Assembly (NCBI GenBank): GCA_016213365.1
Contig: JACRAP010000023.1
Span: forward strand, 15,871-79,870
Direction of reading: 5' to 3'
Length of the DNA: 64,000 bases
Source of the DNA: Candidatus Berkelbacteria bacterium
Lineage (GTDB): Bacteria; Patescibacteriota; UBA1384; 2-12-FULL-50-11
In this document: in pieces, positions 60,124 to 62,975 of the stretch
Layout: every line of letters starts with the position of its first letter
Numbering within the stretch: position 1 is the first letter of the stretch
Program-made: the position numbers and the translations under genes
The notes under the pieces: model-generated
The model's input: the letters and a program-made list of their open reading frames with translations, nothing else
The model's database searches: none
What the model was told of the DNA's origin: nothing

Positions 60124-62975
60124 AGGCGACCGCCCCAGTCAAACTACCCATCTGACACTGTCTTAGTTGTTTTTGCAACTAGTGAGTCTCAAAACAAACG
60201 AAGGGTGGTATTTCACTGTTGTCCGAAGACTCCCACCTATGCTACACATCATGTGCCCTGAAACAATATCAAACTGTAGTAAAGCTCCACGGGGTCTTTC
60301 CGTCTTGCTGCAAGTAGCCGGCATCTTCACCGGCAGTGTAATTTCACCGAGTCCCTCTTTGAGACAGTTTTCAAGTCGTTATGCCATTCGTGCGGGTCGC
60401 TACTTATGCGACAAGGAATTTCGCTACCATAGAACGGTTATAGTTACCGCTGCCGTTCACTCGGGCTTAAATTCGAGCCTCGTCCCGCACTTTGAACACA
60501 AAGTGCTAAATCCTAAATCCTAAGTTCTAAACCCTAAACAGACAAATCCGTTTTGAGTTTAGTGTTTCGAATTTTGAATTTTCACCTTGTGCGCAAGGTG
60601 CGGGAGTCAGCCCTCCTCGTAACCTACGAGCACTGGGCAGGCATCAGCCCCTATACATCTCGTGAGAGATTTGCAGAGACCTAAGTTTTTGTTAAACAGT
60701 CGCTTGAAAGTCATTTGCTGCGGCCAGCACCGCTGCTCCGCACCAGTAAATCCTAAATAACAAGTACTAAATTCAAAACTTGAATTTAGTGTTTTGTGCT
60801 TAGAATTTGCCAATGCGAAGCATTGGGACTGGCAGTCCATATTCCGAAGTTACGGACGCTTTTTTGCCGAGTTCCTTAAAGAGGGTTCACTCGACCACCT
60901 GAGGCTACTCGCCTCAACTACCTGTGTCGGTTTGCGGTACGGATACTAAACATAGTTGACTTAAGAATTTTCTTGCCAGACTTTGAGGTGCTTTCGAAAT
61001 CCAATAATCTTAGCACCCACGGGTCCGTGTCTTCTTAAGGTAGTTGTTTAGTAGTGACGGAATATTAACCGTCTGAACATCGGGGTATTCCCTTAGATCC
61101 GACTAACCCACAGACGATTGGCGTTGCTGTGGAAACCTTAGATATGCGGTGACCAGGGTTCTCACCTGGTTTTCGTTACTCATGCCAACATTCGCACTTC
61201 GTATCGCTCCACAGTCGCTTACGCTTCTGCTTCACTGCAATACGAACGCTCCTCTACCACTCGCAGATAAATCTGCGAATCCTAAAATTCGGTACCTAGC
61301 TTAAGCCCCGTTGAATTTTCCGCGCAAAAAGGCCTAGAGGATTTCTACGCCGCGAAGGCTTTCGCCGACACATTGTAGAGAATCGTAGGATCGACTAGTG
61401 AGCTGTTACGCTTTCTTTAAATGATGGCTGCTTCTAAGCCAACATCCTAGTTGTCTACGCCTTTCCACTTCGTTTTCCACTTAGCTAGAATTTAGGGACC
61501 TTATTTGTAGGTCTGGGCTCTTTCCCTTTAGACCATGCAGCTTAGCCCGCACAGTCTGACTGTATATCCCAAACGGTGTGTATTCGGAGTTTGATAGGAG
61601 GTGAGAGCTTGCGCCCCCAAACTCCTTTCAGTGCTCTACCCCACACCATGCGGATATACGCTATACCTATATATATTTCGAGGAGAACCAGCTATCTCCG
61701 GGTTCGATTAGTATTTTACCGCTTACCACAAGTCATCCCCCAATTTTGCTACATTGGTGGGTTCGGCCCTCCCTGCTAGGTTTCCCTAGAGTTCAGCCTG
61801 CTCATGGCAAGATCACCCGGTTTCGGGTCTAATCCCTGCTGCTAACAGTCGCGCTATTAACACTCGCTTTCGCTTCGCGTTCGATGCATAACATCTTACA
61901 CTCGCAACAAAGATTAACTCGTTGGCTCATTCTTCAAAAGGCACGCCGTCATCCGCCAATTGGCGGACTCCGACTCCTTGTATGCACATAGTTTCAGGTA
62001 CTATTTCACTCCCATACTCTGGGTACTTTTCATCTTTCCCTCACGGTACTAGTTCACTATCGGTTAGATATAGTATTTAGCCTTACGGCACGATCACCGT
62101 ACCTTCCGACTGGATTACACGTGTCCAGCCGTACTCAGGATCAGTATCCAAACGGTAAAGTAGTTTAAAATACGGGACTATCACCCCCTATGGTGGTCTT
62201 TTCCAAGATCCTTCTTCTACTACTTTTTGAACTCGTTCGATTTTACAATCTGATACTGCCCTATAACCCTCGCGCATCTCATGTTGGACGCAAGCAAAAA
62301 CAAATTTTCAAAAGGCTAGATCCATTAATTTTAAAGAATCGCCTGTTACTTACTTACGCCCAAGATGAGACACACGAGTTTGGGCTTTTCCCTATTCGCT
62401 CGCCGCTACTGGGGGAATCGTTACTACTTTCTTTTCCTCCGGCTACTAAGATGTTTCAGTTCGCCGGGTGCCTCTGTCGCTTCGCTTCAAACTCAAAATT
62501 ACAAACTCTAAATCCAAAATCAAAATATCCGTTTTGAGTTTTGAACTTTGAGCTTTGAATTTAAAGTGAAGCGACATAATGTCGGTTCACGACATTGGGT
62601 TTCCCCATTCGGAAATCGCCGGATCAAAGCTTGTTGTCAGCTCCCCGACGCTTATCGCAGACTACTACGTCCTTCATCAGCTATATCTACCAAGACATCC
62701 TCTATGTGCACTTTGGTGAATTACTTACTCTGTCTTTCACGGAAAGTGAATTAGACAGAGTTACTTGACCAACTTTTTCCATTTCTGGGATACAGAAATT
62801 TGAAAGTTGGACTTTTTTGCTAAAAGTTGAAATATCTTCAACTTTAGCTTGGAACCTAGTTGTTAAGATGACGCAAGTTAACAAAAAGCCGCTGTTGGCG
62901 GCCGTAAAGTCAACCAAAAAACAGTTGGCTTTTAACCGGCTCCTCCTTTGGTTTTACTTAACATGTACCTAACAA

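Follow-up and report, generated by a model that had tools for sequence, protein, structure and literature searches.

Palindromic hairpin cassettes with heptad-repeat arms at three helix tips of a Candidatus Berkelbacteria 23S rRNA gene: probable members of an inserted, paralogous family

The window analysed here, i.e. the whole 64,000-nt stretch of contig JACRAP010000023.1 of a Candidatus Berkelbacteria bacterium, carries on its minus strand a 23S rRNA gene in which three helices (H10, H63 and H68) end in long hairpins, termed cassettes below. Matches to R1, a covariance model whose training set consisted solely of copies found in other organisms (L081_H63, L088_H68 and L088_H78), are given with the features.

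58611..62726, minus strand: 23S rRNA gene, host of the cassettes, 4116 nt (Rfam RF02541, 2257 bits, model 1-2925)
60483..60605, minus strand: H68 cassette, 123 nt in place of a ~20-nt hairpin (E. coli ~1866-1875); R1 match 60497-60594, E = 3e-4
60506..60538, plus strand: heptad array CTAAATC x4.7 (TRF, lag-7 autocorrelation), which in RNA sense forms the 3' arm of the hairpin at H68
60546..60560, plus strand: 15-mer ATCCGTTTTGAGTTT, H68 copy, in RNA sense AAACUCAAAACGGAU, adjoining the apex
60583..60600, minus strand: H68 5' flank mini-hairpin CACCUUGCGCACAAGGUG, with its 3' counterpart CACUUUGUGUUCAAAGUG at 60489-60506
60725..60830, minus strand: H63 cassette, 106 nt in place of a ~15-nt hairpin; R1 match 60734-60825, E = 1.4e-5
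60810..60826, minus strand: H63 5' GC-rich flank CCAAUGCUUCGCAUUGG, which folds on itself as a mini-hairpin (cUUCGg loop) or pairs with the 3' flank CUGGUGCGGAGCAGCGG (60730-60746)
62475..62576, minus strand: H10 cassette, the entire helix being 102 nt instead of the usual ~22 nt; R1 match 62478-62576, E = 1.4e-7
62488..62562, plus strand: arrays of the H10 hairpin (TRF), GTTTTGA x4.6 at 62531-62562 and a period 6/13 array at 62488-62526; lag-7 = 0.61
62527..62541, plus strand: 15-mer ATCCGTTTTGAGTTT, H10 copy, an exact match

The 23S gene is bracketed by a 37-nt processing stem (58492-58528 / 62819-62855) and interrupted by an 887-nt group I intron (59237..60123) with a LAGLIDADG gene. An earlier note on this DNA attributed the extra length of the gene to three inserts; most of the ~1,200 extra nt are supplied by the intron, while the three cassettes amount to 331 nt, a net gain of ~274 nt. 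Without the intron and the cassettes the gene is 2898 nt long. The strings quoted in that note are all present in the window, and since the rRNA is encoded on the minus strand they represent its complement. Two further inserts, one of ~95 nt (62265..62375, E. coli ~280-300) and one of 57 nt (61334..61390), are kept in relatives and are unrelated in sequence to the cassettes. Identity of the cassettes as group I or group II introns was rejected, the only Rfam group I match being at 59902..60151 and the H78 cassette of the relative L088, the one representative scanned against Rfam at permissive E-values, matching no family (best E = 0.63). In the repeat region downstream of the 5S gene, Rfam at permissive E-values identified no additional 5S.

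Placement of the cassettes at helix tips is based on cmscan alignments and on MAFFT alignments with E. coli and relatives, and their boundaries were set by comparison with insert-free relatives; the resulting cassettes are larger than the spans first listed for them. In the Rfam LSU alignment they appear as unaligned insertions at hairpin tips: the tip at model positions 163-168 has 80 nt where 5 are expected, that at 1758-1769 has 93 (10 expected) and that at 1893-1902 has 126 (10 expected).

Each of the three cassettes folds as a long hairpin, as had been proposed, with z-scores of -6.2 to -8.7 and none of 200 shuffled sequences as stable. The stems of the cassette hairpins comprise 36-70 bp, which is sufficient for RNase III. 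There are 3-9 G-U pairs per copy, and in 10 of 10 copies the rRNA sense is more stable than the antisense, by 1.6-15 kcal/mol. The cassettes are RNA hairpins of the transcribed strand and are stabilised by G-U pairing. Their GC content (0.32-0.40 for the cassettes and 0.29-0.33 for their AU cores) is below that of the 23S core (0.49); that of the window is 0.41.

Both arms of a cassette consist of tandem 7-nt repeats, with 4-6 units per arm, the 5' arm being A/C-rich and the 3' arm U/G-rich. Identity at lag 7 is 0.54-0.61 in the cassettes as compared with 0.31-0.34 after shuffling (0 of 2000), and a lag-7 scan across the window flagged only the H10 and H68 cassettes. It is these heptads that give the arms the TTAGGG-like appearance remarked upon earlier; a relationship with telomeric repeats was rejected, the unit being a 7-mer that is found on both arms as complement. 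In the H10 cassette, a GC clamp (GUCGCUUC/GAAGCGAC) is followed by heptad arms, and the 3' arm contains a 7-nt bulge equal to one unpaired heptad; a 7-nt bulge is also present in L081_H10. Ends of the H63 type, UGCUUCGCA...UGCGGAGCA, recur in L088 (H63, H68 and H78) and L094 (H25 and H63), and the H68 copy of L094 has the UACG/GUAG variant. The mini-hairpins in the H68 flanks were matched in stability by 4 of 1000 and 1 of 1000 shuffled sequences, values subject to selection bias as these flanks were delimited by eye; automatic delimitation cut through the mini-hairpins and made the z-scores meaningless. In general, a cassette stands in for the short hairpin that ends a surface helix, and consists of a GC-rich clamp, often ending in UGCUUCGCA / UGCGGAGCA, two AU-rich arms and, in some copies, an apical module of three hairpins.

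The cassettes of the window are related to each other. The window contains exactly two occurrences of the 15-mer ATCCGTTTTGAGTTT, one in H68 and one in H10, which bears out the statement that two of the three inserts share it, and its H68 copy falls within a 57-nt alignment to the H10 cassette. In local alignments evaluated against arm-preserving shuffles, H10 and H68 are similar with z = 10 and H63 and H68 with z = 6.2 (0 of 300 shuffles in both cases), while the similarity of H10 and H63 is weak (z = 2.6).

The same family was found in other genomes. The small sample of relatives comprises seven Berkelbacteria-like contigs, several of them partial, and four contigs from other CPR bacteria; the contigs L093 (P0130) and L091 end before H10, and in L083 (P0126) no rRNA was found beside the dUTPase. 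Besides the window, cassettes are present in one distant CPR bacterium and in two of the Berkelbacteria-like relatives, with 2-5 copies each and with H25, H45 and H78 as additional sites. The gene of L088 contains five cassettes, ~600 nt in all, and L094, whose 23S is only ~79% identical, contains four. Family members occupy H25 in L088 and L094, and H45 in L094. In the 64-kb window R1 matches exactly the three cassette sites, and it recovers all of the other known copies; it has no match in 1.1 Mb of unrelated loci, which are GlyRS-match loci (<=56% identity), mostly from Actinomycetota, Chloroflexota and other non-CPR bacteria. Searching ~145 kb of CPR DNA with R1 revealed no full copy outside 23S genes; the one element found outside rRNA is a half-copy in L081 (8429-8491), located upstream of fpg. 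Viral contigs gave no matches in two scans, one with the apical module and one with the L094-type end.

Cassettes of a single gene are 75-91% identical to each other, whereas copies at the same site in different genomes are often dissimilar. For example, L088_H10 and L088_H63 are similar with z = 17 and the H25, H63 and H68 copies of L094 are 87-91% identical, while the same-site pairs WIN_H10/L088_H10 and WIN_H68/L088_H68 (WIN denoting the window) reach only z = 0.5. Similarity across both helices and genomes is also observed: L081_H63 and L088_H68 align with z = 20 over ~115 nt, including the non-repetitive module, in which three pairs are compensatory.

The closest relatives lack cassettes wherever this could be checked. 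The window 23S is nearest to that of L087 (97.7% core identity), followed by L085 (96.2%); the tree of relatives rests on ~820 nt. L087 has neither the H63 nor the H68 insert and carries UCCUCGCAAGAGGA at H63. The contig of L085 includes only H68 among the cassette sites, and the insert is missing there. L088 is nearest to L082 (96.1%), which has none of the five cassettes of L088. Short H68 tips are found in L081, L082, L085, L086 and L087, and a short H10 in L082, L090 and L092. At the cassette sites of the window the hairpins of relatives measure 13-20 nt, contrary to the possibility, raised in the earlier note, that the inserts are conserved helices of unchanged length. The cassettes are evidently not ancestral rRNA, are paralogous to one another, and have evidently been gained or lost between organisms whose core 23S sequences are only 2-4% apart.

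It is thus concluded with high confidence that the three features belong to a 23S-specific family of palindromic hairpin cassettes, inserted and paralogous. The earlier proposal that the inserts form a small family of hairpin elements lodged in variable helices of the 23S rRNA is strongly upheld by the recognition of all three by a model built from copies of other organisms, by their absence from the closest relatives at every site that could be compared, and by the presence of paralogues at other helix tips elsewhere. A family of cassettes built of 7-nt repeats is apparently undescribed. At the DNA level, the cassettes may spread from helix tip to helix tip and between lineages, by template switching, ectopic conversion or an enzyme of unspecified kind, and they may lengthen by 7-nt slippage.

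By analogy with bacterial intervening sequences (IVSs), the cassettes may be excised from pre-23S rRNA by RNase III, a fate to which even chances are assigned; the confidence in the interpretation as a whole stands at the same level for this reason. In pre-23S rRNA, RNase III would cleave the long AU duplex, and the duplex would be discarded in the manner of a classical IVS. Excision together with intron splicing would leave four non-covalently held pieces of ~0.15, 1.64, 0.12 and 0.99 kb, and the self-complementary flanks could cap the new ends. Of the 56 non-overlapping ORFs of at least 109 aa picked in the window, 55 were analysed with Pfam (the pilin-like ORF 57075-57704 was left out, and the domains of the dUTPase were taken from its database match P0121); neither an RNase III gene nor a transposase was among them.

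It is also possible, though not favoured, that the hairpins are kept in mature 23S rRNA and protrude from the 50S surface as bacterial expansion segments (ESs) that evolve through slippage together with concerted evolution, much as the 'cryptically simple' ESs of eukaryotes do. The sites H10/ES4L, H25/ES7L, H45/ES15L, H63/ES27L and H78/ES30L are positions at which E. coli tolerates retained insertions and eukaryotic ESs are located (PMC2441807), but H68 is absent among the 35 tolerated 23S insertions recovered in the E. coli screen (PMC2441807). E. coli ribosomes are functional with an unprocessed IVS (PMC8708148), and one source mentions retained bacterial ESs of 100 nt, such as mycobacterial H54a (PMC5737476); CPR ribosomes, however, tend to be smaller, with H9 and H63 reduced (PMC9297842), and in L088 a single gene would have to accommodate the ~600 nt of its five cassettes. 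Heptad slippage and homogenisation within a gene resemble the co-evolving simple motifs among the ESs of one rRNA, yet the presence or absence of cassettes varies at 2-4% core divergence, unlike that of a conserved ES. The compensatory changes in the apical module (n = 3) are in line with retention, and the maintenance of this module hints at a function beyond being discarded.

A further explanation concerns the mode of spread and fits either fate of the RNA: the cassettes could be non-autonomous DNA transposons (MITE, PATE or REP-like palindromes) moved in trans, with helix tips as the sole places where they are tolerated. The conserved, TIR-like ends that each form a hairpin, the near-identical copies within one gene (87-91%), the occurrence of one module at different helices in different organisms, the presence in a distant CPR lineage and the intergenic half-copy upstream of fpg would all agree with such an origin. 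This explanation is nevertheless unlikely given the lack of full copies outside 23S genes in the ~145 kb of CPR DNA, of a transposase among the window ORFs analysed and of matches in viral contigs. Moreover, the cassette takes the place of the helix tip instead of interrupting it, so that no target-site duplication can be recognised, and all copies have a single orientation relative to the rRNA, with a structure specific to the RNA sense.

A bolder proposal, likewise doubtful, is that the cassettes constitute a new class of selfish element for rRNA helix tips, a palindromic module that would copy itself from loop to loop within and between CPR 23S genes. The GC clamps or self-capping end hairpins would make either excision or retention harmless, growth would proceed by heptad slippage, and the apical three-hairpin module would be recognised by the moving or processing machinery.

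Independent, convergent growth of low-complexity sequence at each helix tip, with a purely compositional similarity, might be suggested by the simple heptad arms and by pairs without significant similarity, such as the two H10 copies mentioned above, but it is highly improbable, being contradicted by long alignments that span non-repetitive parts (the apex 15-mer, the three-hairpin module and the UGCUUCGCA/UGCGGAGCA ends), by z-scores of up to 20 against arm-preserving shuffles, and by the cross-trained model, which finds all copies and nothing else. Misassembly, to which the rRNA regions of a metagenome-assembled contig such as this one are prone, or an ordinary ancestral 23S sequence has a negligible probability, being contradicted by the occurrence of the family at matching helix tips in other samples, which were assembled independently (L081, JGI 3300009868; L088, Ga0163152; L094, ENA ERZ27254809), by the intact and colinear flanking rRNA, which totals 2898 nt without the intron and cassettes, and by relatives without inserts.

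The rRNA genes of CPR/Patescibacteria are rich in insertions, of which only introns and homing endonucleases have been characterised so far. The short ORF-less insertions, previously left as "uncharacterised, probably IVS", are now given an anatomy in which heptad arms are combined with conserved ends and, optionally, a structured module, and the result supplies a model with which to search for them. The behaviour of the cassettes is that of a proliferating element, with up to five helix tips occupied per gene, paralogues that are 75-91% identical, gain or loss at 2-4% rRNA divergence, and occurrence in distant lineages. Excision would mean that some CPR ribosomes work with a 23S rRNA split into four to six pieces; retention would mean that these "minimal" bacteria possess expansion segments of the eukaryotic style, among them one at H68, a site at which none is known. 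Both possibilities touch upon the evolution of ribosomes, the rRNA-based detection of CPR organisms, and the origin and spread of hairpins in RNA genes.

Among known systems, eukaryotic ESs share with the cassettes the growth of short motifs by slippage, with compensatory slippage that keeps the helices paired, as well as common motifs among the segments of one rRNA and the overlapping sites H10, H25, H45, H63 and H78. Hancock and Dover reportedly described in 1988 how simple motifs co-evolve among the ESs of one rRNA, a phenomenon connected with cryptic simplicity. However, ESs are retained and occur clade-wide at a fixed site with variation mainly in length, while the cassettes have defined ends and are wholly absent from the nearest relatives where checked, these having minimal hairpins. 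H68, which lies on the subunit-interface side, is not known to be a site of eukaryotic ESs.

Palindromic mobile elements that land inside genes include the Rickettsia palindromic elements, MITEs and REP/PATE. Like them, the cassettes are palindromes of 100-150 bp with multiple near-identical copies and hairpin-forming ends, and are inserted at tolerant, surface-exposed positions of functional gene products. Their conserved ends (UGCUUCGCA/UGCGGAGCA) are complementary. Unlike for MITEs, no dispersed intergenic copies were found in the CPR DNA searched, the half-copy in L081 being the one exception and the 64-kb window containing none outside the 23S gene; neither a target duplication nor, among the window ORFs analysed, an associated transposase was found. 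Their orientation is strictly uniform and their G-U pairing is specific to the RNA sense.

At two sites, short insertions in CPR 23S genes that are not introns had already been suspected of being IVSs (Tsurumaki et al. 2024, PMC11270868). The cassettes share with these 'uncharacterised short insertion sequences' the host group (CPR/Patescibacteria) and the 23S location, and are likewise non-intron, ORF-less and <200 bp long. The threshold for counting an insertion in that survey was 100 bp or more relative to E. coli; sequence families, repeat structure, end motifs and paralogy between helices were not defined there, and neither hairpins nor Berkelbacteria are mentioned in the text (PMC11270868).

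Bacterial 23S IVSs, known from Salmonella, Yersinia, Campylobacter, Leptospira, Coxiella and alpha-proteobacteria, are defined as sporadic extended stem-loops of 100-200 nt that replace a tetraloop, with a GC content below that of the host, at sites including H25 and H45 (PMC4990558, PMC8708148); helices 9, 25 and 45 are the commonest (PMC4990558). The copies in the window differ from them in location, none of H10, H63 and H68 being a listed IVS site, and the cassettes differ in their number (up to five per gene), in their paralogy across helices, in arms made of 7-nt tandem repeats, in conserved, self-complementary ends and, in some copies, in the apical three-hairpin module; their excision by RNase III is putative. 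In other respects the cassettes conform to IVSs: they are AT-rich stem-loops that replace small terminal loops (102-123 nt in place of hairpins of 15-22 nt), are sporadic among close relatives (the L087, L085 and L082 comparisons), have a GC content below that of the host rRNA and genome and are dispensable for the rRNA core, and members of the family also occur at the canonical IVS sites H25 (L088 and L094) and H45 (L094).

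The 23S rRNA gene of the window, identified with Rfam, extends over 4116 nt against a 2925-position model. The earlier note had ascribed the extra length to three inserts, but most of it is due to an 887-nt group I intron. Removal of the intron and of the three inserts, here called cassettes (AU-rich palindromic hairpins of 7-nt repeats on 23S helix tips), leaves 2898 nt. Sub-alignments to the LSU model left four stretches unaligned at hairpin tips, at model positions 163-168 (80 nt vs 5 in the model), 283-288 (94 vs 6), 1758-1769 (93 vs 10) and 1893-1902 (126 vs 10). Helices were assigned by aligning the window 23S with that of E. 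coli (L084:1628-4532) and of relatives, and the numbering was cross-checked with PMC2441807.

Features of the 23S-5S region
58348..58465, minus strand, 5S rRNA gene following the 23S gene (Rfam)
58492..58528 / 62819..62855, 37-nt inverted repeat bracketing the 23S gene, 84% complementary
58611..62726, minus strand, 23S rRNA gene (Rfam)
59237..60123, minus strand, group I intron, after about E. coli position 2262
59245..59868, minus strand, LAGLIDADG_2 homing endonuclease ORF in the intron, 207 aa (PF03161)
59902..60151, group I intron core (Rfam RF00028)
60483..60605, H68 tip cassette, 123 nt (E. coli ~1866-1875)
60506-60538, period-7 array CTAAATC (TRF)
60725..60830, H63 cassette, 106 nt (E. 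coli ~1707-1751)
61334..61390, minus strand, extra insertion of 57 nt near E. coli 1110
62265..62375, minus strand, extra insertion of ~95 nt near E. coli 280-300
62475..62576, H10 cassette, 102 nt (E. coli 149-176)
62531-62562, period-7 array GTTTTGA (TRF)

The two extra insertions are GC-richer, lack heptad periodicity and are kept in the Berkelbacteria-like contigs L081 and L082; they look like stable clade-specific extensions outside the cassette family. The intron lies just 3' of the P-loop (GGCGGUCGCCU^CCUAAA), and the best database homologues of its homing endonuclease, ~60% identical, are from Patescibacteria. The related contig L086 lacks this intron, and the introns of relatives are located elsewhere, e.g. 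after ~1932 in L081.

Each cassette is predicted to fold into a long hairpin (z -6.2 to -8.7), as the earlier note had proposed, and the strings quoted there, including a shared 15-mer, are present in the window. The repeats had been described as TTAGGG-like; their repetitive appearance is real, while the unit, according to both TRF and lag-7 identity, is a heptad and not TTAGGG. Read as RNA, the 5' arm is rich in A and C (e.g. AUUCAAAG CUCAAAG UUCAAAA CUCAAAA) and the 3' arm is its U/G-rich mirror. Lag-7 identity in the AU-rich cores is 0.54-0.61 vs 0.31-0.34 in arm-preserving shuffles (0/2000), and lag 14 is likewise elevated. When the entire window is scanned for lag-7 identity, the H68 and H10 cassettes alone stand out. 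The 3' arm of the H10 hairpin contains one unpaired heptad, a 7-nt bulge of the kind that one-unit slippage would be expected to leave.

The view of the inserts as a small family of hairpin elements is supported by local alignments of cassette pairs, scored against arm-preserving shuffles. Within the window, the H10 and H68 cassettes align over 57 nt across the apex (z 10) and H63 with H68 at z 6.2; similar within-gene pairs are found in L081 (H10/H63, z 6.5) and in L088, another Berkelbacteria-like contig (H10/H63, z 17, ~115 nt at ~75% identity; H25/H68, z 8.3). Same-site cassettes of different genomes often have no detectable similarity: the window and L088 pairs at H10 and at H68 each give z = 0.5. 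The window and L081 H10 copies give z 10.9. The highest score (z 20, ~115 nt) joins L081 H63 to L088 H68 and takes in an apical module that consists of three small hairpins and is free of repeats; L088 H78 has this module too. Comparison of these three copies reveals three compensatory double changes in the third hairpin of the module. R1, a covariance model trained on the same three copies only, finds just the three cassettes in the 64-kb window (E = 1.4e-7, 1.4e-5 and 3e-4), recovers all remaining L081 and L088 copies, and has zero matches in 1.1 Mb of unrelated bacterial loci. It also matches four copies (H25, H45, H63 and H68) in L094, a CPR bacterium found via a homing endonuclease homologue, the alignable parts of whose 23S are ~79% identical to the window's; its H25, H63 and H68 copies are mutually 87-91% identical. 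R1 had no match on three other CPR contigs (L099, L104, L114), and the one member scanned against Rfam, the L088 H78 cassette, matched no family.

The GC-rich ends have the form NN-UGCUUCGCA-NN / NN-UGCGGAGCA-NN in WIN_H63 (the window copy), L088 H63, H68 and H78, and L094 H25 and H63; a variant, UGCUACGCA / GCGCGUAGC, occurs in L094 H68, and L081 H63 and WIN_H68 have different sequences in the same layout. The two end segments could pair into a 12-21-bp clamp, and each is self-complementary and can form a mini-hairpin of its own, in many cases with UUCG as the loop. With limits chosen by eye, automatic delimitation being unsuccessful, most flanks outfold at least 996 of 1000 shuffles, and self-folding is retained in six sequence versions. 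All 10 copies of the window, L081 and L088 (36-70 pairs each, 3-9 of them G-U) are more stable in the rRNA sense than antisense, by 1.6-15 kcal/mol; L094 H25, H63 and H68 likewise favour the rRNA sense, the two senses being nearly equal for H45. This bias indicates constraint on the transcript and not on a DNA cruciform.

L081 and L082 were obtained through dUTPase-23S synteny and L085-L088 by a metagenome scan with a clade-specific 20-mer adjoining H68, while L090 and L092 supply the 5' end of a further relative's 23S.

Cassettes in the window and in Berkelbacteria-like relatives
Window: cassettes at H10, H63, H68; short hairpins at H25, H45, H78
L087: no cassette at the sites checked; short hairpins at H63, H68
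L085: no cassette at the site checked; short hairpin at H68
L086: no cassette at the sites checked; short hairpins at H63, H68
L081: cassettes at H10, H63; short hairpin at H68
L088: cassettes at H10, H25, H63, H68, H78; no short-hairpin site listed
L082: no family cassette; short hairpins at H10, H63, H68
L090/L092: no cassette at the site checked; short hairpin at H10

Length comparison with the relatives' helices bears out insertion, short hairpins alone being present at H63 and H68 in L087 and L086, at H68 in L085 and L081, and at all three sites in L082. At occupied sites the entire distal hairpin is swapped for the cassette, not interrupted by it. Over ~820 nt of core 23S the window gene is nearest to L087 (97.7%), then L085 (96.2%), L088 is nearest to L082 (96.1%), and L081 is basal; cassette presence is incongruent with this tree. 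A different 51-nt AU-rich hairpin insert, unrelated to the heptad cassettes, occurs in L082 (~5700) at H45, a classical IVS (intervening sequence) site (PMC4990558).

It is thus established that the three features arose by insertion and are paralogues within a cassette family targeting terminal loops of 23S helices, that the cassettes are evolutionarily labile, that copies within a gene are more alike than same-site copies between genomes, and that one cassette type occupies different helices in different organisms and occurs in a distant lineage. These patterns imply either that cassettes were repeatedly copied between helix tips or that the copies within a gene are strongly homogenised, and in both cases that losses or lateral replacements are frequent. 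Hairpins in rRNA can arise and be repaired through template switching in replication (PMC8794818), which, combined with 7-nt slippage, would account for the mirrored heptads.

Outside 23S the only copy found is a half cassette in L081 (8429..8491, minus strand; 63 nt), which matches the 3' half of L081 H63 (3' arm and part of the module) at 81% identity. It directly precedes the start codon of fpg, and the intergenic region there exceeds that of L082 and L090 by ~100 nt. The GGAG of the half cassette is ~12 nt before the ATG, and the element may by now act as 5' UTR or as Shine-Dalgarno sequence of fpg. Viral contigs scanned for the module and for the L094-type end gave zero matches.

The dUTPase gene lies just upstream of the 23S gene; beyond a Candidatus Berkelbacteria protein (100%), its next best database match is 55% identical. 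No 16S gene was found upstream of the 23S, and the arrangement of a 23S-5S unit downstream of the dUTPase gene is kept in L081, L082, L088 and L090. The 23S-5S spacer is ~145 nt in the window and ~1.4 kb in L081 (13684..15094), where it has no called gene or Rfam match. The inverted repeat bracketing the 23S gene corresponds to the processing stem expected in the precursor, a structure of the kind that RNase III typically cleaves. Pfam searches of 55 of the 56 non-overlapping ORFs of at least 109 aa in the window found neither RNase III nor a transposase; housekeeping genes (the dcw cluster, type IV pilus genes, tRNA synthetases, ribosomal proteins L11 and L21) are present. Downstream of the 5S gene on the minus strand, its 29-nt 3' end (58336-58364) recurs three times (58266, 58190 and 58070; 76-97% identity) and an internal 32-nt piece (58366-58397) recurs at 58113-58144. 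Each of these repeats could pair with the 5S 5' end, and Rfam finds no additional 5S in 58070..58397. Four tandem TTTTCCAC motifs with period 10/20 at 52311..52366 resemble DnaA boxes and could be a replication origin or regulatory array; the sole called ORF there (210 aa) has no Pfam match.

As to RNA fate, the main rival explanation is that the cassettes are retained as expansion segments. Five of the six family sites are insertion-tolerant or expansion-segment positions (PMC2441807), and the apical module changes by compensatory substitution, both of which favour retention; it is opposed by the way cassettes come and go among relatives, by their location at H68 and by the generally reduced ribosomes of CPR bacteria (PMC9297842). 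If the cassettes were instead excised, the window 23S would be left in pieces of ~150, 1644, 119 and 985 nt, whose new ends might, speculatively, be capped by the self-complementary flanks.

IVSs and unclassified short CPR 23S insertions are already known, and in an earlier survey of rRNA insertions in CPR bacteria IVSs were suspected, without characterisation, among the short ORF-less class (PMC11270868). Full-text literature searches and that survey yielded no described family with heptad arms, self-complementary conserved ends and an optional structured module, and no account of up to five helix tips per gene, including H10, H63, H68 and H78, or of inter-helix paralogy of rRNA insertions. 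By analogy, the intervening-sequence model, with excision predicted, is favoured because the cassettes fit the published IVS definition (PMC4990558, PMC8708148): like IVSs, they replace a tetraloop with an extended stem-loop of 100-200 nt, are sporadically distributed and low in GC, form long duplexes suited to RNase III, and in some family members occupy the canonical sites, H25 and H45.
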